A DNA stretch of 64,000 nt from Alphaproteobacteria bacterium (GCA_963422645.2 CAXXVO010000006.1:192001-256000); one strand, 5' to 3'. Shown: positions 1 through 43,368, numbered from the stretch's first letter. Numbers and translations are program-made. Notes: generated by a model from the sequence alone, not told the origin.

Positions 1-137
1 CGTTTCCACAACCAGCATCTCCCCCACCACCCCGTCCGTCCAAACGACGAGGTGTGTTCATGGACACAAATCCAAGGGGGTCAATTTTGGACGCCGATCA
101 CCCCCAATAGGGGGTCACTTTTCCACGCTTAACAACA
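1..137 (-). mobile_element. Left end of an IS21-family element (same element as 8309-10859), cut by the window edge
   Basis: Sequence matches 10723-10859, including the istA start and the terminal ...TTAACAACA. It abuts the interior of the unclassified transposase at 138. Confidence 0.93.
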
Positions 138-607
138 GTCAGGGACCTCCAGGATGTCCGCGACATCGTCAGGGCCAGCCGCAGGGAGACGCCCAAGCAC
201 TGCCGGGCCGGCGACCTCGACGAAGCCGAGCAGCTCGATGCCTTGCCCGCGCGCGAGCGCCTCCTCCTCGACGTCATCCGGATGATCGCCTACCGCGCCG
301 AAACCCGCATGATGCTTCCCGTCATGCAGGCGCAGGGCCACAAGCCCCATCCCCGGAAACTGCTTCAAGCGCTGCTCACCGCCGATGCCGACATCCTGCC
401 GGATCCTGGCAATGGCCTCCTGCGGGTCCACATTCTTGGCCTCGCAAACGACGCCTGCGACCGTTGGATCGATGCGGTTCTGAGCGACCTGAACGCCACC
501 GAAACGGTCTTCCCCGGCACCCGTCTGCGCATAGTCTACGACATCGACGGGGCCTCGGAATCCGCGCGGCTCGTGTCACCTAAAATCAGCAGAGGTCAGG
601 AAGTCTG
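138..607 (+). mobile_element. 3' 470 bp of the unclassified IS, interrupted by IS21
   Basis: Matches 37205-37674. Ends in GAGGTCAGGAAGTCTG followed by AGCCT. Confidence 0.93.
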
Positions 608-879: not shown

Positions 880-2069
880 CTACGCATCCGTCTGGTGGAG
901 GAAATCGTCCTGGCGTTCGTCCGCCTCACCGCCGCGTCCGCTGTTGGTCACGTCGAACGCTCCGCTAGCACGCAGCTCATCGGCGATCAGCAGGGGGCCG
1001 TCGCAGATGCGGTTGAGGAGGTCCGCTTGCCGGAATTCGAGTGCGACCAGGCGACCGAGGACGTGGAGCACGTTCATCAGTTCCGTGGTGTACTCGGCCA
1101 GCCAGCCCTCGGGTTGGATCTTTTCGAGCGTCGACGGCGGACGCCGGTCGCCGACAATGGGCCGGGAGCGGTCGAGGCGGCGGTAACTGAACCACTGCAG
1201 AAGCACTTGCTTGCCCGAGACCTCGTACTCCCACACCCCTCGCGACACGTTGTCGATGAAGCCATCGCCGATCTTCAGGCGGCGGGCGGCGGCATCATAT
1301 GCTATGCGATCGGGAAAGCGCCCCGGTTCGGTCGGGATTGCACCGTTCTTCGGAATGACGGCGCGCTCGCCCGCCGGCATTCGCGGCGCGGCCTTGGGCC
1401 GCTCCGCGCTGGGCTCGACGAAGCGATCACCGAAACAGTGGAGCCAGACGACCTCTCGCCCGATTTCGACGGCCTCCGAGAACAGCGAGGCTTCGGCGGT
1501 CATCGGAAAGCGCAGGCCCGGATGGACCAGGTCGGAGCGGAAACGAGCGGTGTACGCAGGATGCGCCGCAATGGCCGCGATATAGGCCATCAGATCGGGT
1601 GCGCTGATAGAGACGGCGAGAGCATCCGCTACCTCGCGCAGCAGACCCGCCTTGAGATTTGACTTCCGTTGATGGCGGTCAGCCCAGAGCGGAAATACAC
1701 GACCTCCAAAAGAACCCCTGTAGTGGTGTAGATCCGGTATCGCCGCAGAAAACGTCACCGCCGGTCCCGTTTTAGGCGCATGTGCTTGAAGCGCCGTCAA
1801 GTAGACTTGCTGGTTCGAATAGTTCTCCCAAAGCGTCGGGTTTGGTTGATTGATCACTCTTCCGTCGGGGATAATCCACTGCCGATCGAAAGAACGGAAA
1901 CCGTATCGAACAGGTGGAACAATTGAGCCCTTGTCCTTGGCAATAGAGCCGGCGCGGAACTCGTGACCGTAAAGGCCCTTGTAAAGCGGTTTATTGAGGT
2001 GTTTATCTCCGGGTTTTCCATCCCGAAGATGAGGATGGAACAGCATCTCCCGTTTTCTGGGAGTAGTTT
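880..2069 (-). pseudogene. C-terminal specificity domain of a Type ISP-like restriction-modification enzyme, 5'-truncated at an IS
   Basis: The C-terminal ~395 aa of ORF 880-3099 contain VRYGFRSFDRQWIIPD and VWEYEVSGKQVLLQWFSYR, typical of Type ISP C-terminal domains. The upstream part of that ORF is only the antisense of the IS. Confidence 0.78.
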
Positions 2070-3275
2070 CAGACTTCCTGACCTCGTGATGCTGGCTGTT
2101 CTGGGCGGCAAGCCGCTGCTCTGTCTGCACAAGCCGCTGGACCCGAAGATGGTCGCGGCCATCGAAGCCGACGTGGTGCCGGCGCTGCAGGAGCTTGGGA
2201 TCGTTGGCGCCGGGGCGCCGGACCTGACCGCCGAGCATCCCGGCCAGCCGGCGCTCACCCTGGTCTTCGACCGCGAGGGCTGGAGCCCGGATCTGTTCCG
2301 CCGGCTGGCGAGGCGCGGCGTCGCCTGCCTGACCTGGCACAAGAACTTCAGGGGCGAGGACTGGCCGGCCGAGGACTTCGGCGCGATGACCGTTCCCATT
2401 CACGGACCGGCGGCGGACGGCAGCGCCACCATGCGGCTGGCTGAGAAGCCGGTGACGTTGCCGAACGGCTTCAGGGTGCGCCAGATCCGCCGCCTGCTCG
2501 ACAACGGCCGTCAGGTGCCGCTGATCACCACCGATCCGCACAAGCCGATGGCTGAGGTTGCGGGCGCCATGTTCTCGCGCTGGTCGCAGGAGAACTTCTT
2601 CAAGTACATGCGTGACGAGTTCAATCTCGACGCCCTGCCGACCCACGAGCTCGAGCCTCTCGATCCCGCCGCCATGGTCGTCAACCCGCTGCGGCGGGCC
2701 TATGACAAGGCAATCCATCGCCTCGACCGCCAGCTTGGCCGCCTGCGCAACCGCATCGCCGACACGGCCCGGAAGAAGCAGCCGACGGCGGAACTCAGGA
2801 GGGAAGTCAGGGACCTCCAGGATGTCCGCGACATCGTCAGGGCCAGCCGCAGGGAGACGCCCAAGCACTGCCGGGCCGGCGACCTCGACGAAGCCGAGCA
2901 GCTCGATGCCTTGCCCGCGCGCGAGCGCCTCCTCCTCGACGTCATCCGGATGATCGCCTACCGCGCCGAAACCCGCATGATGCTTCCCGTCATGCAGGCG
3001 CAGGGCCACAAGCCCCATCCCCGGAAACTGCTTCAAGCGCTGCTCACCGCCGATGCCGACATCCTGCCGGATCCTGGCAATGGCCTCCTGCGGGTCCACA
3101 TTCTTGGCCTCGCAAACGACGCCTGCGACCGTTGGATCGATGCGGTTCTGAGCGACCTGAACGCCACCGAAACGGTCTTCCCCGGCACCCGTCTGCGCAT
3201 AGTCTACGACATCGACGGGGCCTCGGAATCCGCGCGGCTCGTGTCACCTAAAATCAGCAGAGGTCAGGAAGTCTG
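2070..3275 (+). mobile_element. Internally deleted (non-autonomous) copy of the unclassified IS, 1206 bp
   Basis: Both terminal IRs are present (CAGACTTCCTGACCTC / GAGGTCAGGAAGTCTG), with AGTTT on each side. It lacks the equivalent of 35199-36505, joined at TCTGGGC. Confidence 0.93.
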
Positions 3276-3901
3276 AGTTTATCCAAGCGCGCAATGACCA
3301 GATTGTTCTCCAAAAACCAATTACCGGTTCTCGCCGATTCCCACTTGTCGTTGGTCATAATTTCAAACGGCAACTGAAAGCGACGATAGAGCTCGTCCTG
3401 CCACTGCTCGGCAAGACTGCCAGGGCAGACGATCAGACAGCGATGCAAGTCTCCGCGGGCTACTAGCTCGCGAATGAGCAGCCCTGCCATGATGGTCTTT
3501 CCGGCACCGGGGTCGTCAGCCAACAGAAACCGTAAAGGCTGTCGCGGCAGCATTTCCTCATAAACAGCTGTGATCTGGTGTGGCAGCGGGTCAACAAGGG
3601 AGGTGTGTACTGCCAGGACTGGATCGAACAGATGGGCGAGCCGAATCCGGTGCGCCTCGGACACGAGCCTAAACAGTCGGCCATCGCCGTCTAAACTCCA
3701 TGGCCGTCCTTCTTCGATAACTTCCAATCGAGACTCATCGTGGCGGTACAAGAGTTCGTTGGCTACCTTACCTTTCGAATCCTTGTAAGTGAGTTCTACC
3801 GCTTCGGAGCCAAACCATTGGACGTTAACGACCGTGACAAGGCCATGGGGAAGGATGCCGCGTATCGACGTGTTGGGAAGAAGGTCATCAAGGCGCGTCA
3901 T
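3276..3901 (-). pseudogene. N-terminal fragment of an SNF2-family helicase, truncated by an IS
   Basis: PLPHQITAVYEEMLPRQPLRFLLADDPGAGKT (Q motif and Walker A) and LIVCPGSLAEQWQDEL (motif Ia). The frame runs into the IS right end after LDKL. Confidence 0.88.
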
Positions 3902-4342
3902 GTCAGTCCGGTCCATTTGCGAGAAGCCAGAGTGGTGCTTCCGACAGCGACCCAGCTGACCGCCGGAATCCCAGGCGGGGCCTCGATACTCCGGTCCGCT
4001 CTGAACAATGGGTCGCGACGCCGGTCATCGTAGCGAAAGCGCGCGCGTGCAAACTCGGGGGCCCGTTTGTCCGCCTGTGTCCTTCGACCATCTATCGCTC
4101 CGTCTTGCGCCGGTCACGCTGCGCGGCGGTGATAACATGTTGGACGTTCGGCCGCGAGACCCGGAACTCCTTCACGATCGCCGCGAGCCTGAGGCTGGCC
4201 GCGAGACGTCGAGGGTTCTCGCCGGCGACCGGCCGGCTTTTCCTCCCGATCTATCCTGTGTTACCGACGCAATCCCCACATGGCCTTGACATGGTAAGGA
4301 ATATTCCTTACCATCCTGCGCGGCACAGAAGGAGCGGCGATC

Positions 4343-8510: not shown

Positions 8511-9239
8511 TCAGGAGCGGTTCTTGAAGCGCCAGCTCTCGTTGCCGGTCTCGATGATCTCGCAATGATGGGTGAGGCGATCGAGCAGCGCTGTGGTCAT
8601 CTTGGGGTCGCCGAAGACGGATGGCCATTCGCCGAAGGCGAGGTTTGTGGTGATGACGATCGAGGTGCGCTCGTAGAGCCGGCTCATCAGATGGAAGAGC
8701 AGCTGCCCACCGGCCTGGGCGAAGGGCAGGTAGCCGAGCTCGTCGAGGATGACGAAGTCGCGGCGGACGAGCTGGTCTGCAGTGCGGCCCTGGCGTCCGG
8801 CGCGAAGCTCGGCCTCGAGGAGGTTGACCAGGTCGACGACGTTGTAGCACCGGCCGCGCGCGCCCTTGCGGATGCAGGACCGCGCGATGGCGACGGCGAG
8901 ATGGGTCTTGCCGGTACCGGTGCCGCCGACCAGCACGATGTTGCGTTTGCCCTCGAGGAAGCCGCCGCCGGCGAGCTCCTGGATCAGGGGCTCGTTGACC
9001 GGCGAGGCGGCGAAGTCGAAGTCGGCCAGCTCCTTGACCGTCGGCAGCTTGGCGGAGGCCATCTGGTACTTGATCGAGCGGGCCCTCTTGTCGGCGATCT
9101 CGACCTGCAGCAGCGTACCGATGATCTGTTGCACCGGATGGCGGCGCTTGAGCCCGTCGGCAAGGATGTCGTCGTAAGCGGCGCGCATACCTGCGAGCTT
9201 CAGCTGGGTCATCATCTCCAGCACATCATGACGCTCCAT
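8511..9239 (-). CDS. istB: IS21 helper AAA+ ATPase IstB
   Basis: [35 protein letters not shown]. Confidence 0.96.
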
Positions 9240-10740
9240 GACCGGCCTCCCTCAGGCTGTCGTAGCGCTGACAGTCGGCTACCGGCTTGTGGCGAAGCTG
9301 CAGGCCCTCGGGCGTCGGGATGATTGCCGGCGGTGCCGGCTGGCGCTGCCGGGCGAGGATGTTGAGCACCACGTCGGCGCTGCAGGCACCGCAGTCGAGC
9401 GTCTCGGCACAGGCCGCCTCAACCGCCTCCAGTCCGTCCTCCAGCACCGCCGCGAGCACCTTGACGAACTGCCGGTCGCCGTCGTCGTGGCCCGCGAGCC
9501 GGGTTCGCAGGCGGCCGAGCGCGTTGGGCAACTGCCAGTCCTTGAAGGGCGCGCCATTGCGTAGCGCGCCGGGCTTCCGCGTCAGGATCGGCACGTAATG
9601 CCACGGATCGTAGACGAACCGGCCGCGCCCGAAGCTGCGGGGGTGCTCGGCAACGGTCTCGCCGTCCTGGCGGATGACGATCCGATCGGCATAGGCCCGC
9701 ACGTCCACCGGCCGGCCGACGGCGCGGGCCGCGACGCTGTACTGGTTGTTGTCGAAGCGCACCAGACAGGTCTTCGAGACCGACACCTCGCTGGCATGGA
9801 AGCCGTCGAAGGGGCCGCGATACGCCATCAGGAAGGGCTGCTCCTCCTCGAACACCTGCCACACCGTCTTGCCCGGGATTGTCGGATGCGGATGCTTCTT
9901 GGCGTCCTCGATGCACCGATCCATCAGCCACTCGTTGATCTCGGCGTAGGAGCGGCCCCGCGGGATGGGCACGAACAGGCGGCCGCGAAGGTCACCCACC
10001 TGCTTCTCGACCTGCCCCTTCTCCCAGCCAGCCCCTGGCGTGCACGCCACAGGCTCCACCAGATGGTGCGAGCACAGCTCCTGGAAGCGGCGGTTGTAGT
10101 CCCGCTTCTTGCCCACGAAGATCGTGCTCACCGCCGTCTTCATGTTGTCGTAGATGCCCCGCCGGCAGACCCCGCCGAAGAAGCGGAAGGCACGCTCGTG
10201 CGCCTCGAAGACCATCTCCTGGCTCTCGCGGGGAAAGATCTGGACCAGATACATCCGGCTGTGGCACAGCCGCATGTGCGCCGCCTTCACCCTGGTCGTC
10301 GCGCCCGACAGACGCGCGTACTCGTGGCTCCAGTCGAACTGGTAGGCCTCGCCGGGATCGAAGATCAGCGGCACATAGGCCTGCGCCGGCGACAACAGCC
10401 GCCACCGGCGCCGCCAGGCCCTGGCATAGCGGCGAACCGCGTCATAGCCGCCCTTGTAGCCCAGCGACACAAGGTCTTCATGAATCCGCAGAAGAGACAG
10501 CCGATCCTTGCGTGCCTTCTTCTCGTTGGCCTTCAGCTGGCGCTCAAGCTCCTCCACCCACAGCCCAAGCTTCGGCATCGGCTGGATCTTGCGCTCGTAG
10601 CTGTGCGAGGTCGCATCGCCCCGCACCACCTTGCGTATCGTGTTCTTGGAAACCCTCAAATCCCGGGCGAGCTTCTTGATCGGAACGCCCTTCACCAGAT
10701 GATCCCGACGGATCTTCGCGATCGTTTCCACAACCAGCAT
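9226..10740 (-). CDS. istA: IS21 transposase IstA
   Basis: N-terminal [21 protein letters not shown] (DDE triad). Confidence 0.96.
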
Positions 10741-10859
10741 CTCCCCCACCACCCCGTCCGTCCAAACGACGAGGTGTGTTCATGGACACAAATCCAAGGG
10801 GGTCAATTTTGGACGCCGATCACCCCCAATAGGGGGTCACTTTTCCACGCTTAACAACA

Positions 10860-21755: not shown

Positions 21756-22484
21756 TCAGGAGCGGTTCTTGAAGCGCCAGCTCTCGTTGCCGGTCTCGAT
21801 GATCTCGCAATGATGGGTGAGGCGATCGAGCAGCGCTGTGGTCATCTTGGGGTCGCCGAAGACGGATGGCCATTCGCCGAAGGCGAGGTTTGTGGTGATG
21901 ACGATCGAGGTGCGCTCGTAGAGCCGGCTCATCAGATGGAAGAGCAGCTGCCCACCGGCCTGGGCGAAGGGCAGGTAGCCGAGCTCGTCGAGGATGACGA
22001 AGTCGCGGCGGACGAGCTGGTCTGCAGTGCGGCCCTGGCGTCCGGCGCGAAGCTCGGCCTCGAGGAGGTTGACCAGGTCGACGACGTTGTAGCACCGGCC
22101 GCGCGCGCCCTTGCGGATGCAGGACCGCGCGATGGCGACGGCGAGATGGGTCTTGCCGGTACCGGTGCCGCCGACCAGCACGATGTTGCGTTTGCCCTCG
22201 AGGAAGCCGCCGCCGGCGAGCTCCTGGATCAGGGGCTCGTTGACCGGCGAGGCGGCGAAGTCGAAGTCGGCCAGCTCCTTGACCGTCGGCAGCTTGGCGG
22301 AGGCCATCTGGTACTTGATCGAGCGGGCCCTCTTGTCGGCGATCTCGACCTGCAGCAGCGTACCGATGATCTGTTGCACCGGATGGCGGCGCTTGAGCCC
22401 GTCGGCAAGGATGTCGTCGTAAGCGGCGCGCATACCTGCGAGCTTCAGCTGGGTCATCATCTCCAGCACATCATGACGCTCCAT
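21756..22484 (-). CDS. istB: IS21 helper ATPase IstB
   Basis: Identical protein to 8511-9239. Confidence 0.96.
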
Positions 22485-23985
22485 GACCGGCCTCCCTCAG
22501 GCTGTCGTAGCGCTGACAGTCGGCTACCGGCTTGTGGCGAAGCTGCAGGCCCTCGGGCGTCGGGATGATTGCCGGCGGTGCCGGCTGGCGCTGCCGGGCG
22601 AGGATGTTGAGCACCACGTCGGCGCTGCAGGCACCGCAGTCGAGCGTCTCGGCACAGGCCGCCTCAACCGCCTCCAGTCCGTCCTCCAGCACCGCCGCGA
22701 GCACCTTGACGAACTGCCGGTCGCCGTCGTCGTGGCCCGCGAGCCGGGTTCGCAGGCGGCCGAGCGCGTTGGGCAACTGCCAGTCCTTGAAGGGCGCGCC
22801 ATTGCGTAGCGCGCCGGGCTTCCGCGTCAGGATCGGCACGTAATGCCACGGATCGTAGACGAACCGGCCGCGCCCGAAGCTGCGGGGGTGCTCGGCAACG
22901 GTCTCGCCGTCCTGGCGGATGACGATCCGATCGGCATAGGCCCGCACGTCCACCGGCCGGCCGACGGCGCGGGCCGCGACGCTGTACTGGTTGTTGTCGA
23001 AGCGCACCAGACAGGTCTTCGAGACCGACACCTCGCTGGCATGGAAGCCGTCGAAGGGGCCGCGATACGCCATCAGGAAGGGCTGCTCCTCCTCGAACAC
23101 CTGCCACACCGTCTTGCCCGGGATTGTCGGATGCGGATGCTTCTTGGCGTCCTCGATGCACCGATCCATCAGCCACTCGTTGATCTCGGCGTAGGAGCGG
23201 CCCCGCGGGATGGGCACGAACAGGCGGCCGCGAAGGTCACCCACCTGCTTCTCGACCTGCCCCTTCTCCCAGCCAGCCCCTGGCGTGCACGCCACAGGCT
23301 CCACCAGATGGTGCGAGCACAGCTCCTGGAAGCGGCGGTTGTAGTCCCGCTTCTTGCCCACGAAGATCGTGCTCACCGCCGTCTTCATGTTGTCGTAGAT
23401 GCCCCGCCGGCAGACCCCGCCGAAGAAGCGGAAGGCACGCTCGTGCGCCTCGAAGACCATCTCCTGGCTCTCGCGGGGAAAGATCTGGACCAGATACATC
23501 CGGCTGTGGCACAGCCGCATGTGCGCCGCCTTCACCCTGGTCGTCGCGCCCGACAGACGCGCGTACTCGTGGCTCCAGTCGAACTGGTAGGCCTCGCCGG
23601 GATCGAAGATCAGCGGCACATAGGCCTGCGCCGGCGACAACAGCCGCCACCGGCGCCGCCAGGCCCTGGCATAGCGGCGAACCGCGTCATAGCCGCCCTT
23701 GTAGCCCAGCGACACAAGGTCTTCATGAATCCGCAGAAGAGACAGCCGATCCTTGCGTGCCTTCTTCTCGTTGGCCTTCAGCTGGCGCTCAAGCTCCTCC
23801 ACCCACAGCCCAAGCTTCGGCATCGGCTGGATCTTGCGCTCGTAGCTGTGCGAGGTCGCATCGCCCCGCACCACCTTGCGTATCGTGTTCTTGGAAACCC
23901 TCAAATCCCGGGCGAGCTTCTTGATCGGAACGCCCTTCACCAGATGATCCCGACGGATCTTCGCGATCGTTTCCACAACCAGCAT
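22471..23985 (-). CDS. istA: IS21 transposase IstA
   Basis: Identical protein to 9226-10740. Confidence 0.96.
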
Positions 23986-24104
23986 CTCCCCCACCACCCC
24001 GTCCGTCCAAACGACGAGGTGTGTTCATGGACACAAATCCAAGGGGGTCAATTTTGGACGCCGATCACCCCCAATAGGGGGTCACTTTTCCACGCTTAAC
24101 AACA

Positions 24105-31454: not shown

Positions 31455-33074
31455 GAGTGTGCGCCGCAGGAATCGCGGATCGCAAGGGATTGCTTTCCTG
31501 CGAAGCGACTGTGTGATCTGATAAGGCATCGCGTAGCGAGGACGGGTTGGATGTCGACGACGTATCGTCCCTATCAGCCGGACCAGTTGCTGTTGCTGGC
31601 GCCGGACCTTCGGGAGTGGCTCCCGGCGGGTCACTTGGCGCATCACGTGAGCGATTTGGTGGATTCTCTGGAGTTGAGCGCGTTGTACGCGCCGTATGAG
31701 GGTGACGGTCGGCGCAATTCCCCGTACGAGCCCTCGATGATGGTCAAGGTGTTGATTTACGCCTATGCGACGGGGGTGTTTTCCTCGCGCGCGATTGCGA
31801 GAAAGATCGAGGAGGACGTGGCGTTTCGGGTGCTGGGGGCGGGGAACTTCCCGCAGCACCGCACGATTTGTGAATTTCGCCGTCGTCATCTCGAAGACTT
31901 CGAGCGGATGTTCGTCGAGGTGGTGCGGGTGGCGCGCGAGATGGGGGTGGTGCGGTTTGGGACGCTGTCGGTCGATGGGACGAAGGTGCGGGCGAACGCG
32001 AGCAAGCGCAAGGCGATGAGCTATGGGCGGATGTTGACCGAGGAGTCTCGGCTGAAGGAGGAGATTCAACGGCTGCTGGACCGAGCGGGCGCGGTCGATG
32101 CCGAAGAGGATGAACGCTACGGTGATGAGGTGCGCGGTGATGAGTTGCCCGCGGAGCTCGAACGGCGCGAGAAACGCCTGGCGGCGATTCAGGAGGCGAA
32201 GGCGCGGCTGGAAGCGGCGCAACGTGAGGCCGATGACGCGCGCGGGCGCGAGCCCGGCCAGGACCGCAATCGCAAAGGAGGCCGGCCGTACAAGCGCGCC
32301 TACGGTGAGCCCGACCCCGGTGCGCAGAGCAACTTCACCGACCCCGAGAGCCAGATCATGAACACCTCCACCGAGGGGTTCCAGCAGTGCTACAACGCCC
32401 AGACGGTGGTCGACGAGACGCATCAACTCATTGTCGCCACCGATGTCGATGCGAACGCCAGCGACCAGGGCCAGTTGCTCCCATTGCTCGATGGGGTGAG
32501 CGAGACCTTCGATGTCGAGCCCGAGGTGGTGTTGGCCGACGCGGGCTACTGCAACGAGGCGGACTTGGTGGCGTTGGAGCAGTGCGGCATCGATGCTCAT
32601 GTCGCGCTGGGGCGCGAGGGCAAGGCACGAGTGGCGGTGGACCCCGAGACGCGTCCGGCCACCCACCGCATGGGCGAGAAGCTGGCCAGTAAGACGGGCC
32701 GGGCTCAATACGCCAAGCGCAAGTGGTTGTCCGAGGCACCGAACGGCTGGATCAAAGAGGTGCTGGGGTTCCGGCGGTTCAGCGTTCGGGGTGCGCACCA
32801 AGTCCGAGGTGAATGGCATCTGGTGTGCCTGGCATTGAACATCAAGCGCATGGCGGGGCTGGCGGCATGTTGACGCAACCAATGGCGCTTCGCGGTGTCG
32901 ACTGGCGGGGGTCGTTCGCCCCCGCAACGCGCTCTCTACGCCTTCGAGCGTTCCCGGCGCAGTTCCTCGGCTCCGGACCATGAAAAACCCCAATCACCGC
33001 GTTCGGTCAATCGGCCGACGTCACTACGGCCAAACGCCGTTTGCCCGACGCGAAAACTCCTGCGGCGCACGCTC
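31455..33074 (+). mobile_element. IS1182-family element
   Basis: IR GAGTGTGCGCCGCAGGA / TCCTGCGGCGCACGCTC, flanked by CTAG on both sides. Confidence 0.92.
31551..32873 (+). CDS. IS1182-family transposase
   Basis: YAYATGVFSSR, SVDGTKVRANAS, NFTDPES, LADAGY, YAKRKWLSEAPNGWIK. Confidence 0.93.
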   Translation: MSTTYRPYQPDQLLLLAPDLREWLPAGHLAHHVSDLVDSLELSALYAPYEGDGRRNSPYEPSMMVKVLIYAYATGVFSSRAIARKIEEDVAFRVLGAGNFPQHRTICEFRRRHLEDFERMFVEVVRVAREMGVVRFGTLSVDGTKVRANASKRKAMSYGRMLTEESRLKEEIQRLLDRAGAVDAEEDERYGDEVRGDELPAELERREKRLAAIQEAKARLEAAQREADDARGREPGQDRNRKGGRPYKRAYGEPDPGAQSNFTDPESQIMNTSTEGFQQCYNAQTVVDETHQLIVATDVDANASDQGQLLPLLDGVSETFDVEPEVVLADAGYCNEADLVALEQCGIDAHVALGREGKARVAVDPETRPATHRMGEKLASKTGRAQYAKRKWLSEAPNGWIKEVLGFRRFSVRGAHQVRGEWHLVCLALNIKRMAGLAAC

Positions 33075-33078
33075 CTAG

Positions 33079-34695
33079 CCCCAATTATTCACGGCGTGTC
33101 TGATTTTGGGGTGGCGGACGTAGCGTAAGCCGTTGCCATCGGGTAGGAATTCGTTGTCCGAGCGTCTTCCTCTCCGAACAACGAAAACGCCACGCCCGCC
33201 ATGACCGACGATAGCCTTCTCCCCTTCGATCTGCCAAGCGTCCAACGCAAGAAGGTGAGTGCCGCCTTCGATGGTGGCCTGATCTCGTCTGACGGCGGCC
33301 TCGTCCTGTTGCGCGGGGCGGAGCGCCGCTTGCGCCTCGCCGAGACCCTGGCAGGCTGCATCCGCGACCGGCGCAATCAGGCGCAGGTGGTCCACTCGCT
33401 CTCGGCCATGCTGCGCTTTCGCATGCTGGCGATCGCCTGCGGTTACGAGGATGCCGACGACTGCGACGCGCTCCGCACGGACCCCCTGTTCAAGCTCGCC
33501 GCGGGCCAGGCGCCGGAGAGCGGGGGCGCGCTCTGCTCGCAGCCGACCATGAGCCGCCTGGAGAACGCACCGTCCCGCATCGAGGTGGCGCGCATGACGG
33601 CGGCGCTGGTCGATCTCTTCTGCCGCTCCTTTCCCGCCCCTCCCGCCGCCATCACCCTGGATATCGACGACACCTGCGATGCCGTGCACGGCCACCAGCA
33701 GCTCTCGCTCTTCCACGCCCATTACGACACGCGCTGCTTTCTCCCCGTCCACGTCTACCATGTGGAGAGCGGCAAGCCGGTGGCGGTCCTCCTGCGCCCG
33801 GGAAAGACGCCGTCCGGGCCTGAGGTCCGCACCCTGCTGAAGCATCTGGTCCGCCGTATACGCCGCCACTGGCCCCGCACCCGGCTCACCTTCCGCGGAG
33901 ATTCCCACTACGGCCGCCCGCAGGCCATGGCCTGGTGCGAGGAGAACGGCGTCGACTACATCTTCGGCCTCGCGGGCAATCGCGCGCTGCATGCCCTCGC
34001 CTACGAGGTGGCCGACGACCTCAAGGTGCGCCGCGCCGAGGCCGGCGCAGACAGGATGCGCAGCTTCGCCGCCTTCGCCTACGCCGCCCGCTCCTGGGGC
34101 CGCGAACGCCGGGTCGTCGCCAGGCTAGAGGCGAGCACGCGCGGCTTCGACGCCCGCTATATCGTCACCTCGCTCAGCGGCGAGCCCCGCCATCTCTACG
34201 AAGTCCTCTACTGCGCCCGCGGCCAGGCCGAGAACCTGATCAAGCTGCACAAGGGCCAGCTCGCCTCGGACCGGACCTCTTGCCAAAGCCCGCTCGCCAA
34301 CCAGCTCAGGCTGGTCCTGCACACCGGCGCCTACTGGCTCATGCTCGCCCTGCGCGACGCCATTCCCCGTGCTGCGCCGCTCGCCCGCGCCGAGTTCGCC
34401 ACTCTCAGGCTGCGCCTGCTCAAGATCGGTGCCCGCGTCATCGAAAAGGCCGCCCGCATCCGTATCCACTTCTCCTCTGCCTGCCCGGACGCCGCCCTCT
34501 TCCGCCTGCTCGCAGGGCGCCTCGCAGCAGCAGGCCCCTGACCGCCGGGGCGCCGTGCCCCGTAAACCCGAACTCCCCCTCAACCCCCAACGCCTGTCAC
34601 AACAAAGCTCGAAACCGGATGCCTATGGCGTCAGGGGGAAAGCTCACGCCGTGCCATCGTGACCTCCAAAGGCAACGCAGGATGAATAGGTCAGG
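33079..34695 (+). mobile_element. IS1380-family element
   Basis: Imperfect IR CCCCAATTATTCA / TGAATAGGTCAGG, with CTAG at 33075-33078 and 34696-34699. Confidence 0.88.
33201..34541 (+). CDS. IS1380-family transposase
   Basis: FDGGLISSDGG, GYEDADD, TLDIDDT, RGDSHY, YCARGQAENLIK. Confidence 0.94.
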   Translation: MTDDSLLPFDLPSVQRKKVSAAFDGGLISSDGGLVLLRGAERRLRLAETLAGCIRDRRNQAQVVHSLSAMLRFRMLAIACGYEDADDCDALRTDPLFKLAAGQAPESGGALCSQPTMSRLENAPSRIEVARMTAALVDLFCRSFPAPPAAITLDIDDTCDAVHGHQQLSLFHAHYDTRCFLPVHVYHVESGKPVAVLLRPGKTPSGPEVRTLLKHLVRRIRRHWPRTRLTFRGDSHYGRPQAMAWCEENGVDYIFGLAGNRALHALAYEVADDLKVRRAEAGADRMRSFAAFAYAARSWGRERRVVARLEASTRGFDARYIVTSLSGEPRHLYEVLYCARGQAENLIKLHKGQLASDRTSCQSPLANQLRLVLHTGAYWLMLALRDAIPRAAPLARAEFATLRLRLLKIGARVIEKAARIRIHFSSACPDAALFRLLAGRLAAAGP

Positions 34696-35118: not shown

Positions 35119-35161
35119 TGTCAATACTGGGATCCTCGCTGACTGCGTTTGTCATCAGAAT

Positions 35162-37674
35162 CAGACTTCCTGACCTCGTGATGCTGGCTGTTCTGGGCAG
35201 CGTGCCGGGAACTCCTTGAATTCTGATACATTTCGGTTGTTTCAGGCGGTTTTTCGCTGGGTGTCGCGCCCGAGGTCTGATAGTATAATTTGATACCAAT
35301 TGCACGGGGTCTCAACCATGCCCAGTACCCTCCCAATGTGCCCTCCAGAGGCGGTCTCGATCGGCAACAGCTGCTTCGCCGTCCTGATCTCGGACGACAC
35401 CTTCACCTACTTTTCCAACCTCATTCCCTTTGACAGCCACGCCGCCGATGACCGCACGGCCATGCTCTTGCGGATCGGCCGCCTCGCGGCGATCAGCGCG
35501 GTCTCGCCGCAGGAACTGGCTGACGCTTTCGCTGTCTCGCGCGCGACGGTGCAGCGCGCACGACGGCGCTACCTGGCCGAGGGCGAAGCGGGGTTCATGA
35601 AGCCCCGGCGCGGTCGCGGGCCGTCGGTGTTCACTCCGGAGTTGGCGGAGAAGGCGACGGCGTTGCTGGCATCGGGCCTGAGCGGCTCTGCGGCGGCCCG
35701 GGTTCTCGGCGTGTCAGCGCCATCGGTCAACAAGTGGCGCCGTCAGGGACTGATCGGCAACACGGAGGCGGATGGGGAGCCCGGACGCTCAGCGCTGGCT
35801 GCGCCGCCTGACGCGGGTGCGGCTCCTGAAGGCCGTGTCGATGAAGAGAGTACCGGTGCCCCGGGGCCGGAGACGGCGCCGGGGCTGGAAGCGCAGCCGC
35901 AAACGGATCGCAGCGCGCGCGATCGGCGGGACCGGCAGGCGCCGATGGGGCGTGCGACTTGCGATGTTCCGGCTCGGGTTCTGGCCAGTTGTGGACAGGC
36001 GGGGCCGGTCGAACCGCAGTTCGCCGCCGCCGCCCGCGGTGTCCGCTTCGGCGGCGTGCTCGCCGCCCTGCCGGCCCTGCTGAAGGAAGGTCTTCTCTCC
36101 GAGACCGGTCTCCTGCCATTGCTGCCGAAGGGCTATTACGGCTTGCCTACGATCCTGCTCTTCCTGGCCTTCATGACCTTGGCGCGGGTGCGCAACCCCG
36201 AGAGCCTGCGCTACCAGGCGCCGGGCGAATGGGGCGCCATTCTCGGCCTCGATCGCTGCCCCGAGGTCAAGACGCTGCGCCGCAAGATCGCTCTCATCGC
36301 CGACGACGAGGCCGGCGTGCGGGCGTGGCAGCTCGCCCTTGCCAGGCGCTGGCAGGCCGACGAGCCGGAGCTCTGGGCGACGCTGGCCATCGACGGGCAC
36401 GTCAAGGTCTACTCCGGCCGCAAGGGGCGCTTGCCCAAGCACTTCGTCTCGCGCGAGAAGCTGTGCCTGCCGGCGAGCGCCAGCTACTGGATCAACGCTC
36501 TGGGCGGCAAGCCGCTGCTCTGTCTGCACAAGCCGCTGGACCCGAAGATGGTCGCGGCCATCGAAGCCGACGTGGTGCCGGCGCTGCAGGAGCTTGGGAT
36601 CGTTGGCGCCGGGGCGCCGGACCTGACCGCCGAGCATCCCGGCCAGCCGGCGCTCACCCTGGTCTTCGACCGCGAGGGCTGGAGCCCGGATCTGTTCCGC
36701 CGGCTGGCGAGGCGCGGCGTCGCCTGCCTGACCTGGCACAAGAACTTCAGGGGCGAGGACTGGCCGGCCGAGGACTTCGGCGCGATGACCGTTCCCATTC
36801 ACGGACCGGCGGCGGACGGCAGCGCCACCATGCGGCTGGCTGAGAAGCCGGTGACGTTGCCGAACGGCTTCAGGGTGCGCCAGATCCGCCGCCTGCTCGA
36901 CAACGGCCGTCAGGTGCCGCTGATCACCACCGATCCGCACAAGCCGATGGCTGAGGTTGCGGGCGCCATGTTCTCGCGCTGGTCGCAGGAGAACTTCTTC
37001 AAGTACATGCGTGACGAGTTCAATCTCGACGCCCTGCCGACCCACGAGCTCGAGCCTCTCGATCCCGCCGCCATGGTCGTCAACCCGCTGCGGCGGGCCT
37101 ATGACAAGGCAATCCATCGCCTCGACCGCCAGCTTGGCCGCCTGCGCAACCGCATCGCCGACACGGCCCGGAAGAAGCAGCCGACGGCGGAACTCAGGAG
37201 GGAAGTCAGGGACCTCCAGGATGTCCGCGACATCGTCAGGGCCAGCCGCAGGGAGACGCCCAAGCACTGCCGGGCCGGCGACCTCGACGAAGCCGAGCAG
37301 CTCGATGCCTTGCCCGCGCGCGAGCGCCTCCTCCTCGACGTCATCCGGATGATCGCCTACCGCGCCGAAACCCGCATGATGCTTCCCGTCATGCAGGCGC
37401 AGGGCCACAAGCCCCATCCCCGGAAACTGCTTCAAGCGCTGCTCACCGCCGATGCCGACATCCTGCCGGATCCTGGCAATGGCCTCCTGCGGGTCCACAT
37501 TCTTGGCCTCGCAAACGACGCCTGCGACCGTTGGATCGATGCGGTTCTGAGCGACCTGAACGCCACCGAAACGGTCTTCCCCGGCACCCGTCTGCGCATA
37601 GTCTACGACATCGACGGGGCCTCGGAATCCGCGCGGCTCGTGTCACCTAAAATCAGCAGAGGTCAGGAAGTCTG
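35162..37674 (+). mobile_element. Complete unclassified IS, 2513 bp
   Basis: Perfect 16-bp IR CAGACTTCCTGACCTC / GAGGTCAGGAAGTCTG, AGAAT on both flanks, one long ORF, and three further pieces in the window. Confidence 0.93.
35284..35289 (+). promoter_or_regulatory. Candidate -10 box for the transposase gene
   Basis: Perfect TATAAT 28 bp upstream of the ATG at 35318. No convincing -35 box. Confidence 0.4.
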
Positions 37675-37675
37675 A
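35318..37675 (+). CDS. Large putative DDE transposase (785 aa), family unassigned
   Basis: Two N-terminal HTH-like segments (ELADAFAVSRATVQRARRRY; AAARVLGVSAPSVNKW). Candidate triad AIDGH / VFDREG / MFSRWSQENFFKYM, the last resembling the IS4-superfamily YREK motif. Confidence 0.85.
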   Translation: MPSTLPMCPPEAVSIGNSCFAVLISDDTFTYFSNLIPFDSHAADDRTAMLLRIGRLAAISAVSPQELADAFAVSRATVQRARRRYLAEGEAGFMKPRRGRGPSVFTPELAEKATALLASGLSGSAAARVLGVSAPSVNKWRRQGLIGNTEADGEPGRSALAAPPDAGAAPEGRVDEESTGAPGPETAPGLEAQPQTDRSARDRRDRQAPMGRATCDVPARVLASCGQAGPVEPQFAAAARGVRFGGVLAALPALLKEGLLSETGLLPLLPKGYYGLPTILLFLAFMTLARVRNPESLRYQAPGEWGAILGLDRCPEVKTLRRKIALIADDEAGVRAWQLALARRWQADEPELWATLAIDGHVKVYSGRKGRLPKHFVSREKLCLPASASYWINALGGKPLLCLHKPLDPKMVAAIEADVVPALQELGIVGAGAPDLTAEHPGQPALTLVFDREGWSPDLFRRLARRGVACLTWHKNFRGEDWPAEDFGAMTVPIHGPAADGSATMRLAEKPVTLPNGFRVRQIRRLLDNGRQVPLITTDPHKPMAEVAGAMFSRWSQENFFKYMRDEFNLDALPTHELEPLDPAAMVVNPLRRAYDKAIHRLDRQLGRLRNRIADTARKKQPTAELRREVRDLQDVRDIVRASRRETPKHCRAGDLDEAEQLDALPARERLLLDVIRMIAYRAETRMMLPVMQAQGHKPHPRKLLQALLTADADILPDPGNGLLRVHILGLANDACDRWIDAVLSDLNATETVFPGTRLRIVYDIDGASESARLVSPKISRGQEV

Positions 37676-37690
37676 GAATACCATTTCAAG

Positions 37691-38751
37691 TGCGGAATCC
37701 GACGCACTTGACCGCCGTTTCCGATTTTACTTGACCGCGATTCCGACGACACTTGACCGCGCCGCGGGCGCGCCATCGCTCTGTCTCTCCCGGATGTGTT
37801 TGTGGCCCCCTCCCTTGGTGATTGCAGGGGGCTGGCCAGTGGCCAGCCCGAGCCGAGCGTATGCCGAGGCCCCTTAGCCGTGCAGAGGACCGGTGGGCGC
37901 GGCGGCAACCCCTCACATCAGGCATGCCGCCGCGCCCCTCCGCCCTCGCAGCCAGGAAGGCGCCGCAGGCGCCCATGGACCCCGGCCGTCAGGCCGGGGC
38001 TCTGTTGCCGTCGTCGCCGCCGTCGAGGGGCGGAAGCTTGTTGCGCTTGCGCTTCGACCCGCCCTCGAGGTCGATGCGATAGGCGTTGTGGACGATGCGA
38101 TCGAGGATGGCGTCCGCGATCGTTGGCTCCCCGATCACCTTCGGCCAGTGCTCTACGGGGATCTGACTGGCGACGAGGGTGGACCTCCACTCGTGGCGCT
38201 GCTCGACGATCTCCATCAGCTCGCGCCTGCCTTCGGTTGAGAAGTCCTGCAGCCCCCAGTCGTCGAGGACCAGGAGGTTGTACTTGACGAGGCGGCGCAT
38301 GAGCCGATCGTGACGCGCCGTGTCGCGGACCCGGGCGAGTTCTGCGATCAGCTCGGGGACGCGTCGATAGAGGACGGCCTGCTTCTGGCGGCAGGCCTGA
38401 TGGGCGAGGGCGCAGGCGACGAATGTCTTCCTCGATCCCGTTGCGCCGCAGATGATCAGATTGATGGCCTGCCGGATCCAGCCGCCGGCGGCGAGCTGGG
38501 TGAGCGTGGTGCGCGCGATGCCGCGTCCGGCGCTGCAGTCGATGTCCTGGATATCCGCCCGGACGCGCAGCTGGGCCTGTCGGAGATGACCGAGATAGCT
38601 GCGGTTGTCGCGGTGCTGGCACTCGCGCTCGAGCAGCATGGCGAGACGGTCGTCGAAGCCGAGCTGGTCGATGTCGGCGATATCGCGCTGCTCCTCCATG
38701 GCCTCGGCCATGCCGGAGAGGCCGAGCTGGAGCATGCGCTCGATATTGGGC
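37691..38751 (-). mobile_element. Right part of another IS21-family element (terminus plus istB)
   Basis: TGCGGAATCCGACGCACTTGACCGC terminus with three ACTTGACCGC repeats, followed by istB. Confidence 0.82.
37989..38751 (-). pseudogene. istB: IstB ATPase, 5'-truncated, with degenerate Walker A
   Basis: GATGSRKT (G to R), LVLDDWG, PTIADAILDRIVHNAYRI. The start is removed at the IS terminus at 38752. Confidence 0.85.
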
Positions 38752-38778
38752 TGTCAATCGGCATTCAATATTGACCCC
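38752..38778. mobile_element. 27-bp terminus of an IS21 related to 8309-10859
   Basis: TGTCAATCGGCATTCAATATTGACCCC versus TGTCAATCGGCTTTCAATACTGACCCC. Cut by the IS3 end. Confidence 0.78.
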
Positions 38779-39958
38779 TGACTGGAGTGGGCCCCTGGGG
38801 CCGGACAGTTTCATGCGGCCGATTTGACCGGCTTGCGGGACTGCTCCTCCTCGAAACGGTCGGGGCTCAGGTATCCGAGGGCGGAGTGTAGGCGTCTCTC
38901 GTTGTAGCTGTCGATGAAGCGGGGCAGGTGCTCCGCCACGTCTTCCGCGCTCTCGAGGGCCATGGGATAGACGCCCTCGACCTTCAGGGTCTTCATGAAG
39001 CTTTCCATCATGGCGTTGTCGTAGGGGTTGCCGCGCCGGCCCATCGAGCCGACCAGGCCGTGTTCGTCGAGCAGGGCCCGGTAGGCCTGGGCGGCGTATT
39101 GCGAGCCCCTGTCGGAGTGGTGGATGCAGCCGGGTGGCGGGTTGCGGCCCTCGATCGCCGTCGCCAGCGCCGCAAGGGTTAGCCGGGCATCGATCCGCCG
39201 GCCGAGGGCGTAGCCCACGATGCGCCGCGACCACGCATCCATGATCGCCGCCAGATAGACGAAGCCGCCCAGGATCGCGATGTAGGTCAGATCGGCGACC
39301 CAGAGCTGGTTCGGACCATCGACATCGCGCTCCCTGGAGCGGTCCGGGAAGACGGGCTCGTCGTGGTCGCTGTCGGTGGTGGCGACGAAGCGGCGCCGGC
39401 AGGGCGGATGCAGCGCGTGCTCGCGCATCAGGCGCTTGATCTTCTTGTGGTTCACCACCCAGCCGCGATGCCTCAGCGCCGCCTGCATGCGCCGCCAGCC
39501 GTAGGCTTCGAACTCATCCTTGATCGCGTGCATGGCCTCCACCAGCGCGGTGTCGTCTGCCGAGCCCTTGGGCTTGTCGTAGTAAGTAGAATGCGCGATC
39601 CCCATCAGTCGGCATCCTTCGGCGACGGAGAGGCCTTGGGGCCGGTGATGACGGACATGGGCGCGTTTCTCGGCCGGCGTCCTTGCCGCTGAGCCCCCTT
39701 TAGAAACTCGAGCTCCAGGGCCTGCTTGCCGACCAGGCGCTCGAGCGCCGCGATCCGGGCCTCGTATTCCTGGATCGTGTCGGCCGCCTCGGCGTCCTCG
39801 TCGAAGGCGCCGGCCTCGTACTTGTCCACCCAGATCCGGATCAGGGTGCGGGAGAGCTCGTGCCGACGGGCCAGGCCGTGCAGCGTCTCGCCGGCGAGAT
39901 ACTCCTGAACGACCTGGCGCTTGAACGCGATGCCGTGGGTGCGGTGGGTTCGGTGCTT
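38779..39958 (-). mobile_element. IS3-family element lacking its left end
   Basis: OrfA HRTHGIAFKRQVV...ELEFLKGA, slippery A AAG GGG near 39694-39701, and OrfB WVADLTYI / HHSDRGSQY / DNAMMESF ending at 38811. Confidence 0.9.
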
Positions 39959-42105
39959 TGTGGAAACGGCGGTGCGAAATTAGTCCACGGTAGCGGCGGG
40001 ATTGTCTCGCAGCGGGCGGAGCAAGACTCTGCCAGATAGGCCCTTCCCGGCGACGGGGAGGGCGGGGGCATGCATACCGTGGAACTTTATCGGAAGGTCC
40101 GTCTCGCGTGTCGGGACGGGATGAGTGAGCGGGCTGCGGCGCGTCATTTCGGGATTTCACGCGAGAGCGTGAAGAAGATGCTGCAGTTTTCGGCGCCGCC
40201 GGGCTATCGGCGGACGGCGCCGCTTCGGCGTCCGAAGCTGGACGGGTTCATCGAGATCATCGACGGGTGGCTGCGGGACGATCTGGAGCAGCTGCCCAAG
40301 CAGCGGCACACGGCGAAGCGCATTTTCGACCGTCTTCGGGCCGAGCACGGGTTCAGCGGCGGCTACACGATTGTGAAGGATCATGTGCGCGAGCATCGGC
40401 GCCGGCGGCGAGAGATGTTCGTGCCGCTGATCCATCCGCCGGGGCATGGGCAGGCGGACTTCGGCGAGGCGCGGGCGGTGATCGGGGGTATCGCGCGCAA
40501 GGCGCACTTCTTCGTGTTCGATCTTCCGCACAGCGACGCCTGCTACGTGCGGGCCTACCCTGCGGCGACGGCCGAGGCGTGGATGGACGGGCATGTGCAT
40601 GCCTTCGCCTTCTTCGGCGGGGTTCCCCGATCGGTTCTCTACGACAACGACCGCTGCCTGGTGTCGCGCATCCTGGCCCGGCGCAACTTCATGGTGCCGC
40701 TGCCACGGTTTGCGAGCTGGGAAGAGTTCAACCTGCGGCTCGAGGAGCAATGCCACAGCCGCCAGGGCGATATCCTGCGCGGACACCGCGAGACCATCGG
40801 AGAGCGCCTGGCGCGGGATGTGGCGGCCATGGCCGCGCCGCCGGCTACGCCCTTCGAGGCCTGTGACCAGGCTCCCGGCCAGGTCAGCTCGCAGTCTCTG
40901 GTTCGCTATCGGACCAACGACTACTCGGTGCCGGTGGCCTATGGCCATCGTGACGTCTGGGTACGCGGTTACGTCGATCGAGTGGTGATCGGCTGTGGCG
41001 GAGACGTCATCGCCCGCCATCCCCGGTCCTATGAGCGTGAGGACATGATCTTCGAGCCGATCCACTATCTGCCCCTGATCGAGCAGAAGATCGGCGCCCT
41101 GGACCAGGTAGCGCCGCTCGCCGGATGGGACCTGCCGCCCGCCTTCCAGACCCTGCGCCGCCTGATGGAGGCACGCGCGCTCAAGGCGGGGCGGCGGGAG
41201 TACGTGCAGGTCCTGCGGCTGCTGGAGAGCTTCGGGCTGGAGGATCTCCACGCCGCAGTGAAGGATGCCCTGCGCCTGGGCGCCATAGGCTTCGACGCGG
41301 TCAAGCACCTGGTGCTGTGCCGCCTCGAGAAGCGCCCGCCGAAGCTCGACCTCGATGTCTACCCCTATCTGCCGAAGGCTACCGTCGGCAGGACCTCGGC
41401 GGCCAGCTACATGTGCCTGCTGTCGGAGGACGCGGCATGACGGACACGCCCCACATCCTGCTGGCGCACCGCCTCAAGGCCCTGAAGCTGCCGACCTTCC
41501 TGCGCCAATACGAGAAAGTGGCGCACCAGTGCGCGGCCGAGGGCCTGGATCATATCCAGTTCCTGGCCCGGCTGGCGGAGCTGGAGTTGATCGAGCGCGA
41601 AGGGCGCATGGTCGAGCGGCGCATCAAGGCGGCGAAGTTCCCGCTCGCCAAGAGCCTCGACAGCTTCGACTTCAAGGCCATGCCCGCGCTGAACAAGCCG
41701 CGGGTGCTGGAGTTGGCGCGCTGCGAATGGATCGAGCGGCGCGAGAACGTCATCGCCCTCGGCCCATCGGGCACCGGCAAGAGCCATGTCGCCCTGGGGC
41801 TCGGACTGGCCGCCTGCCAGAAGGGGCTGAGCGTGCGCTTCATCACCGCAGCGGCGCTGGTGCATGAGCTCATGGAGGCGCGTGACGAACGACGACTGCT
41901 GCGGCTGCAGAAGCAGCTGGCAAGCCTCAAGCTGTTGATCATCGACGAGGTCGGCTTCGTCCCGCTATCGAAGACAGGCGCCGAGTTGCTGTTCGAGCTG
42001 GTCTCCCAGCGCTACGAACGGGGCGCCACCCTGATCACCTCCAACCTCCCCTTCGACGAATGGACCGAGACCTTTGGCTCCGAGCGCCTCACCGGGGCGC
42101 TCCTC
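39959..42105 (+). mobile_element. Third type of IS21-family element, defective (right end lost)
   Basis: TGTGGAAACGGCGG terminus, istA and partial istB. Confidence 0.85.
40070..41440 (+). pseudogene. istA: IstA with an in-frame internal deletion
   Basis: QADFG and YDNDRCLVSRIL are joined directly to ARRNFMVP near 40675. The segment carrying the catalytic KGxVE motif is absent. Confidence 0.82.
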
Positions 42106-42624
42106 AACGACGACCGCGACATGCTTCTGGAGATGCGCATGGTGCTCAACGTGCACCGCGAGCCGGGCTTCGACGACAGCGTGCCGACCTCGGCCCAGGT
42201 GCTGCGCATGGCGACGTCGAATGGCGCGCAGACGACACCGTTCGGCACCGAAATCGGTTCGCTCGAGGTTGGCAAGGCGGCCGATATGGTGCTCATCAGC
42301 TGGCGCGACATCACCGGCCCGTTCCTCGATCTCGACATCGACGTCTCGGTAATCGACGCGATCGTCCTCCGCGCCAAGTCGTCGGGCGTCAAGACGGTGC
42401 TGGTCGCAGGCGAGCCGATCCTGCGCGACGGCCGCTTCACGCGGCTCGACCGCGAGGCGGCGCTGGCCGAGCTCGCCGCGTCGCTCAGGCGGCCGGCCGA
42501 CGACGACGAGCTGCGGCGCATCGCGCTCAGCCGCAACGTGCTGTCCCATGTCCGGAAGTTCTATGACGGCTATCTCGACGCCGAGACGCGCGAGCCCTTC
42601 TACGCCCGCAATTCGCGTCGCTGA
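41437..42624 (+). pseudogene. In-frame chimera: IstB (to 42105) fused to an amidohydrolase C-terminus
   Basis: GPSGTGKS, IIDEVGF, LTGALL, then NDDRDMLLEMR...MATSNGA...IGSLEVGKAADMVL...VKTVLVAGEPILRDG. Confidence 0.85.
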
Positions 42625-43255: not shown

Positions 43256-43368
43256 CTCGGGCGCGACACCCAGCGAAAAACCGCCTGAAACAACCGAAAT
43301 GTATCAGAATTCAAGGAGTTCCCGGCACGCTGCCCAGAACAGCCAGCATCACGAGGTCAGGAAGTCTG
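43256..43368 (-). mobile_element. Isolated 113-bp left end of the unclassified IS, inverted
   Basis: Reverse complement of 35162-35274. Outer flank is AACCT. Confidence 0.92.

Follow-up and report, generated by a model that had tools for sequence, protein, structure and literature searches.

Tn5 moves by cut-and-paste, through hairpins at the ends of the element. In the portion available of the survey by De Palmenaer et al. (2008, PMC2266710), the IS4 family is characterised by catalytic spacings of 60–110 and 100–150 residues, a target duplication of 7–13 bp and, as a hallmark, the absence of a frameshift, while the ISH3 family is assigned a duplication of 5 bp that begins with A and ends with T. 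Recoding is listed for IS1, IS3, IS5 and IS630 in the available text of PMC5009743, which describes +1 ribosomal shifting as not known among insertion sequence (IS) elements. A poly-A run of eight or more combined with shifts in both directions has been treated as a sign of transcriptional realignment, with clusters reported for IS630 and DDE_Tnp_1 transposases (excerpts of PMC3711429), and two-way slippage on A9 is described for IS1447 (excerpts of PMC6211511). Here we analyse an element in a 64-kb stretch of alphaproteobacterial DNA (the window, 64,000 nucleotides) that combines features of these systems. We consider it probable that this is an IS, present in 67 full copies, which duplicates a 5-bp A-NNN-T target, moves by Tn5-type cut-and-paste and encodes a permanently fused transposase, and that most of its relatives join the two parts of that protein by slippage on 8–10 A's.

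The full-length copy (35162..37674, forward strand, 2513 bp) is bounded by a perfect 16-bp inverted repeat (IR), CAGACTTCCTGACCTC, at 35162..35177 and, on the reverse strand, 37659..37674; the left motif recurs in relatives. AGAAT is present on both sides (35157..35161 and 37675..37679, forward strand) and is read directly from the sequence as a 5-bp target duplication. These boundaries agree with the initial annotation, as do the other pieces that it had matched to this copy by eye, all of which are 100% identical to it. An internally deleted copy at 2070..3275 (forward strand) retains both IRs and AGTTT/AGTTT flanks and splits a type ISP-like restriction/helicase gene; its deletion joins two 7-bp TCTGGGC repeats (element positions 31–37 and 1338–1344). 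The left end of an inverted copy (element 1–113, flank AACCT) was confirmed by sequence comparison at 43256..43368 on the reverse strand. A 3' piece (element 2043–2513, flank AGCCT), whose left side is cut off by another IS, had been placed at 138–607 and starts one base earlier (137..607, forward strand). A promoter scan of the element's left end found no consensus site.

The transposase ORF (35318..37675, forward strand) encodes 785 aa in a single frame with no A-run of five or more. Its last codons overlap the right IR, and its stop codon TGA (37673–37675) consists of the T-G of the IR and the first A of the target. Target-completed stop codons, which occur in IS630-family elements, were seen at 19 of 113 distinct right ends of relatives, and in one relative with a TGGTT flank the ORF continues past the element end.

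The genome assembly comprises 5.9 Mb in 23 contigs (completeness 99.6, contamination 8.5) and contains the element, which makes up 4.4% of its sequence, in 67 full copies; left ends number 121 and right ends 117. The full copies are >99.6% identical, and the element has been active recently. All four pieces in the window had been noted to have ANNNT flanks, and when the genomic copies were collected this proved to extend to every end (121/121 left and 117/117 right, 238/238 in the whole genome), without a single exception, over 90 distinct flanks at left ends and 89 at right ends. The pattern occupies 2.7% of genome positions, and the flanks are therefore not due to chance. The extended preference is T-A-R-N-Y-T-A, the next base outside the pentamer being A in 52% of 161 distinct half-sites compared to a background of 6%. 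Matching flanks were found at 5 bp for 34 of the 67 full copies and at 6–8 bp for none. The independent short-read run X1 contains the empty site with one AGAAT, skipping 2518 bases (2513 + 5), so that the presence of this copy is polymorphic, with 5 bp as the net duplication.

A 17-bp IR with a 3-bp duplication would look the same in this genome, and was excluded using relatives whose duplications do not end in T (AATTG/AATTG at L027, AGGGC/AGGGC at L070 and AATCA/AATCA at L131), which fix the element end at C. At 80 relative loci from genomes the ends follow CAGAC-n-TCCTGA(C/T)CT, and A-NNN-T flanks 56/63 left and 64/72 right ends, two of the exceptions being doubtful end calls; at 79 metagenome loci the figures are 53/64 and 58/67. 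The CAGA..CCTGA ends and the target rule are thus common to relatives from many phyla, the rule being family-wide and strict in this genome alone. In short-read metagenome contigs, where repeats collapse, duplication flanks match in only 6 of 56, and apart from single matched cases these contigs were excluded from the evidence on duplication length.

The sole perfect extended target within the element, T-AGTCT-A at 37599..37605 (forward strand), has received other copies in both orientations. Special self-targeting was considered and rejected: no other site in the element fits the target profile better than this one, at element position 2439, and the number of hits that the profile predicts is equal to or above the number observed, so the nested insertions need no special mechanism.

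Thirty-three of the 67 full copies carry two different A-NNN-T flanks. End pairs match in 49 of 90 cases, with about 7 expected by chance, and for many unmatched flanks a reciprocal partner exists at another place in the genome. We infer that the mismatched flanks arose by recombination between copies, or from mis-joins in the assembly; comparable IS-mediated recombination is described for other IS in the available parts of PMC11708052 and PMC7002104. A Tn916-like coupling that exchanges the inner NNN is unsupported, since shared flanks mostly keep one pentamer, and is also opposed by the reciprocal partners of the unmatched flanks.

The window copy carries minority alleles near its left end, namely a G at element position 122 and two extra G at 145–146. 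The two extra G are missing from 88 of 111 genome copies and from all short-read contigs covering the place, and the usual element is therefore 2511 bp long. At 36353..36355 (forward strand; element 1192–1194) most genomic copies have an insertion of one or two bases that the window copy lacks: among 95 copies, 33 have +A, 45 have +GC, seven have both and ten have neither. As a result 78 of the 95 are out of frame at this site, and most copies may not be autonomous; if the out-of-frame alleles are real, most copies are passengers. The contigs of runs X1, X2, X4, X5, X7 and X8 list no insertion here, while run X3 has +GC at a depth of 111 of 487. On the basis of X3 the +GC allele is real somewhere, whereas +A may be a consensus artefact. 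The in-frame allele of the transposase is backed by short-read contigs.

The predicted protein (pLDDT 90.2) begins with a module of residues 1–147 (35318..35758) containing a small beta sheet and two HTH units, which corresponds to OrfA of the split relatives discussed below. This is followed by a low-complexity linker (35759..35900; pLDDT <50 at residues 152–189, indicating disorder), the location of an A8–A10 run in those relatives. The initial annotation had proposed two HTH-like segments and such a linker, and the model agrees. It had also proposed a D-D-E triad, and the three residues are strongly conserved: D359 (36392..36394, in DGHVKVY) and D451 (36668..36670, in FDREG) are each invariant (89/89), and E558 (36989–36991) is conserved in 88/89. 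Together they form the predicted active site. E558 lies in a helix resembling the YREK signature, M551-x2-R554-W555-x2-E558-x3-K562-x2-R565 (36968..37012), in which R554 and W555 are each conserved in 87/89 sequences and M551 in 71/89, and the Lys position is R in 49/89. The suggested link to the IS4 superfamily holds by fold; the R and E of this motif are retained and its Tyr is absent. The helical region noted after the catalytic residues is present, and is more specifically a predicted antiparallel coiled coil (residues ~590–646, 37085..37255; helices H590–618 and H624–646) inserted in a Tn5-like chain. All of these features are on the forward strand.

A Foldseek search with the predicted model returned Tn5 transposase as the top match (E 1e-8), and Tn5 was also first among 48,161 structure representatives (Z 18.2, rmsd 4.3, 338 aligned), followed by piggyBac (Z 13.5). 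Model residues 248–723 align to Tn5 residues 7–471, so that the whole Tn5-like chain would lie within the transposase; identity is 11–14%, and a match of this kind does not fix the chemistry. The fold is accordingly predicted to be Tn5-like, of the RNase H type with an insertion domain, with three additions, the N-terminal module (1–147), the linker (152–189) and the coiled coil (590–646). The last of these matches generic helical hairpins alone. The N-terminal module weakly resembles the bipartite DNA-binding domains of paired and Tc1-mariner proteins (E 0.02–0.2) and the IS630 N-terminus, its fold search giving nothing under E 0.001. A PDB sequence search yielded no matches with the single protein, and HTH and coiled-coil matches alone with a profile. 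Pfam PF21804 matches residues 220–765 (E 6e-101, 338.8 bits against a cut-off of 27) and all 66 relatives tested.

We examined 161 relative loci, of which 146 were scoreable and 15 lacked one module and were left out; the loci are not independent, there being several per genome, and L081–L099 and L181–L194 are excluded from the counts as comparators or partial matches. The N-terminal module and the catalytic core are separate ORFs at 90 of the 146 loci. In 88 of these 90 a run of 8–10 A's lies exactly at the junction, 75 requiring a −1 and 13 a +1 shift to join the frames; the two remaining split loci are broken copies of a fused element. Four loci are in frame with A9–A10, and 52 are fused without a run. 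The protein thus owes its length of 785 aa to the fusion of two ORFs, which most relatives keep separate and link by a frameshift. This cause of the protein's length had not been recognised in the initial annotation.

Within these catalytic ORFs, runs of eight or more A's are found only five times in 145 kb. The junction run occupies all three codon phases. In 83 of 86 distinct sites it is preceded by a pyrimidine (T or C), in 64 of 86 it is followed by G, and OrfA stops 4–97 bases after it. Between the run and the first ATG of the second frame (at column 11 in 63 and column 13 in 12 of 83 distinct split sequences), an Arg and an Asp are invariant in 83/83, and entropy is highest at the third codon position (1.45, compared to 0.85 and 0.97). 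This coding-type variation upstream of the ATG, together with the invariant residues, indicates that the second frame is read as protein from the run. Separate clusters of ~150-aa and ~560-aa proteins are present in the ESM Atlas, a single source.

In a FastTree phylogeny of 115 distinct cores the window protein falls in a branch of 20 rows (SH-like support 100) spanning Pseudomonadota, Acidobacteriota, Spirochaetota and Verrucomicrobiota, of which 19 are fused and none has an A-run. The other 95 rows include 87 with the run and eight that are fused without it, and the tree implies at least five to six origins of fused forms that lack a run. The tree is midpoint-rooted, so the direction of change (run lost, or never present) depends on that root; on this basis the fused clade would have lost slippage. 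One record within the branch is named Ca. Porisulfidus, which we take to be a sponge symbiont. Five other genomes of the branch have 22–37 ends each, compared to 238 here. Many split relatives also look multi-copy, being found on element-sized contigs, so that fusion need not raise activity. In the phylum of the genome studied here PF21804 matches 9 of 401 genomes. There were no matches in 14 control genomes or among the 72,556 plasmids of PLSDB, and viral contigs gave one weak HTH match and nothing else.

The A8–A10 runs at the junction (88/90), with shifts in both directions (75 and 13), agree with the published signature of realignment and point to programmed transcriptional slippage, which from the sequence pattern appears to be the best reading of the split loci. 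The main rival is −1 ribosomal frameshifting on A_AAA_AAG or A_AAA_AAA, the +1 cases being dead or mis-assembled. At the 75 loci needing −1, eight or more A's permit a ribosomal slip too, these loci are the large majority of the 88, the run is often followed by G (64/86), and one of the +1 loci, L055, has a stop in its second frame. On the other side, the 13 +1 loci are spread over several separate branches, and the available text of PMC5009743 gives +1 ribosomal shifting as unknown for IS; runs are never shorter than eight, although a ribosome would manage with six or seven; and the run occurs in all three phases, without an SD-like or hairpin stimulator at any of the junctions searched in relatives. 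We regard ribosomal shifting as rather unlikely for these reasons. That the split is unprogrammed, the run being a hot spot of mutation or assembly error with the in-frame alleles alone functional, is much less likely still. Homopolymers are certainly error-prone, the split loci come mostly from short-read assemblies, and four loci are in frame with A9–A10. Yet of the 92 loci with a run 88 are out of frame, a proportion far from random, the position of the run is homologous across many phyla, with OrfA ending shortly beyond it, and the many separate ~150-aa and ~560-aa clusters in the ESM Atlas also argue against such an origin.

Under the slippage reading, RNA polymerase slipping on the A8–A10 run of split relatives would yield a fused OrfA-core protein, while the short OrfA made without slippage may bind the ends and damp transposition, a control that the fused clade would have lost. 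In the element studied here, a predicted dimeric DDE enzyme would excise the element and join it to a 5-bp staggered A-NNN-T site, and excision would pass through hairpins at the element ends as in Tn5, to judge from the fold and the R-W-x-x-E helix; copies with unmatched flanks would derive from later recombination between copies. Alternatively, transposition could be of the IS3-type copy-out-paste-in kind, in which one end attacks 5 bp from the other and a circle with an IR-5 bp-IR junction integrates. Three dimers with IRR-5 bp-IRL junctions are present in the genome (spacers AGACT, AACAT and AACCT), along with one further junction to the IR of a sister element, where ~0.3 junctions are expected, and the AACAT junction is confirmed in runs X4 and X5. 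These head-to-tail junctions are more readily explained by a circle pathway than by simple cut-and-paste, and the very high copy number and the OrfA/OrfB recoding of relatives, a layout shared with IS3-type elements, are also in its favour. However, the spacers are all A-NNN-T and would equally be given by insertion into the flank of an existing copy, the junction is covered in X4 and X5 at a low depth of 5 and 10, as would be seen with one dimer in the chromosome, and circle junctions were found neither in short-read runs X1–X3 nor in the five other genomes with 22–37 ends each. The predicted fold is moreover Tn5/piggyBac-like with an R-W-x-x-E helix, and not IS3/IS256-like (ISCth4 Z 9.1). 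We therefore consider the copy-out route unlikely and retain cut-and-paste as the working model.

The same degree of doubt applies to the possibility that this group has already been named, for example within ISNCY of ISfinder or as a side branch of ISH3 or IS1634. A Pfam model exists, so the protein has been noticed before, and ISH3 (ISH27, ISH3B) has CAG ends, the A-NNN-T target and, as the first motif, D-x-H-x-R-x-Y-x-G in common with the element. Against this, no NCBIfam family matches the core, the short HTH matches at the N-terminus being far below cut-off, and the 66 relatives match NCBIfam models only weakly (IS4 20, IS1380 10, IS1634 8). The ISH3 model NF033541 was scored on 11 of 33 candidates in this genome, none of them a match, and is absent from the 25 top families of the 66 relatives, and in an hhalign comparison with a 19-row ISH3 alignment the first two motifs pair over 145 columns without significance (E 0.1, probability 0.6%). 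The order of the motifs hints at kinship with ISH3 without reaching significance, and the support for membership is likewise not significant. The absence of the group from the 72,556 plasmids, and of any paper among those searched, also speaks against an earlier name.

A broader reading, to which we would give somewhat less than an even chance, is that a widespread IS family found mostly in uncultured bacteria consists of an IS630/mariner-like two-HTH gene and a complete Tn5-like transposase joined by A8–A10 slippage, with CAGA..CCTGA ends and a target that may also provide the stop codon, and that one clade, transferred between four phyla, fixed the fusion and lost the control, reaching ~120 copies here. 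What is new is the two-ORF layout joined across A8–A10 in relatives, and a clade marked by a single fused ORF without the run. If this is correct, the recoded and fused forms are a natural pair with which to ask whether recoding restrains transposition, as has long been proposed for frameshifting, and the ‘putative transposase’ of PF21804 becomes a defined IS family with ends, a target rule, a gene layout and a likely form of expression control. Annotation pipelines will label most members as two hypothetical genes or as pseudogenes. With a 5-bp rule that holds at 238/238 ends, this Tn5-type enzyme offers a clean model of how DDE enzymes read their target, and the element drives rearrangements in its genome. 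It involves no new kind of chemistry, and every one of its features has a precedent in another family.

Compared to the NCBIfam models and the literature, the element is a member of an unnamed family of the IS4 superfamily. Searches by PF21804, ANNNT target and Pfam/InterPro names, with subscription journals mostly outside their scope, found no description of the family, and the one paper that names PF21804 gives it as an entry in a list. The initial view of a poorly described group is thus supported, there being no named family model and no paper found that describes it. That of an unclassified element with strict ANNNT targeting holds with two qualifications: a Pfam entry exists and an A...T rule is published for ISH3. 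The entry (PF21804, Transposase_29, ‘Transposase protein’) models the second ORF alone and is silent on ends, target, upstream HTH ORF and A-run. The A-NNN-T rule itself is not new, since the archaeal ISH3 family has it, and we saw the 5-bp A...T rule again in two ISH3 copies. ISH3 elements are mostly archaeal and 1.2–1.5 kb long (1225–1500 bp), with a single 388-aa ORF, CRGT ends and a Y(2)R(3)E(3)R motif, while the present element is 2513 bp long (relatives mostly 2.3–2.7 kb), with CAGA ends and no Tyr in that motif.

The likeness to IS50/Tn5 and IS4 lies in the structural match of residues 248–723, the R and E of YREK, and D-D-E spacers of 91 and 106 residues, which fall within the IS4 ranges D(60–110)D(100–150)E. 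It differs from IS4 in having M (71/89) in place of the Tyr of the Y(2)R(3)E(6)K motif, a duplication of 5 bp and not 7–13 bp, a length of 2.3–2.7 kb, and the additional two-HTH module and coiled coil. The single-ORF rule of IS4 holds for the window copy and its clade, whereas 88 of 146 relative loci are frameshift-linked. IS1634 and IS701 are IS4-related families with short duplications (5–6 and 4 bp) and an incomplete YREK. In IS1634 the Arg of that motif is mostly absent (kept here in 87/89) and the length is 1500–2000 bp compared to 2.5 kb, its model NF033559 matching 8 of the 66 relatives weakly (best E 6e-7), and the element shares with IS701 neither the 4-bp duplication nor the length of 1400–1550 bp. 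The IS630 model NF033545 scores 35 bits against a cut-off of 100 and covers residues 61–113 alone, not the full length. With IS630, IS3, IS1 and IS5 the group shares a layout in which a DNA-binding ORF lies upstream and is linked over poly-A, by shifts in either direction, to the catalytic ORF, as described in the available parts of PMC5009743, PMC3711429 and PMC6211511. Poly-A recoding, already published for DDE_Tnp_1 clusters, thus has precedents in this fold class. The group differs from all four in that the downstream ORF is predicted to form an entire Tn5-like chain, including an N-terminal domain of its own, and in its ends and target. The element is Tn5/IS4-like by predicted fold, ISH3-like in its target and IS630/IS3-like in the probable expression of its relatives, and it departs from each of these families in the features that define them.

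The deleted copy of the element (2070–3275) interrupts a type ISP-like restriction/helicase gene on the minus strand of the window (880–3916), dividing it into an SNF2/ResIII piece and a Type_ISP_C piece; with a single AGTTT retained, the reading frame continues for ~70 codons beyond the insertion site. The window also contains other IS-like elements (9226–10752, 22471–23997, 31551–32873, 33201–34541 and 37989–42624), namely IS21-like (IstA/IstB), IS3-like, DDE_Tnp_1_4 and DUF772/DDE_Tnp_1 elements, and across the genome that carries it (G000) 20-mers occurring at least five times cover ~23% of the sequence.

Eight left-end pieces in G000, comprising the one at window 43256–43368 and seven elsewhere, all end exactly at element position 113, and most of them adjoin the ends of another IS. 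The shared breakpoint suggests either a hot spot or a single event that was subsequently amplified. G000 additionally harbours a 1.03-kb non-autonomous derivative, in which element positions 1–833 are joined to 2319–2513, at several sites (C3:206712, C5:624719, C5:633898, C8:359796, C8:517865, C8:778611 and C16:9280), some of which display their own matching duplication. In G405, the genome of the related locus L024, several IR pairs are spaced only 400–550 bases apart (e.g. C1:1317934–1318371) and are probably miniature non-autonomous forms.

A second family member in G000 (34% identity, ~760 aa; C6:263092, C7:38239, C8:671111, C10:130410, C11:40151, C12:71541 and C16:97638) has the fused single-ORF layout without the A-run and a left IR of CAGAACTCCTGACAT, with A-NNN-T flanks at 7/7 left ends. 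A third form, of ~78–85% identity, lies at C8:737383, with pieces on C6 and C16. In the relatives L024 and L036, the N-terminal module has an additional, third HTH repeat.

A recurring unit in G000 consists of 739 bp between two direct copies of the element (C21:19857–25622, C5:566169–571934 and C8:866588–872347). The outer flanks of the unit on C21 match (AAACT/AAACT), and in this respect it resembles a composite transposon.
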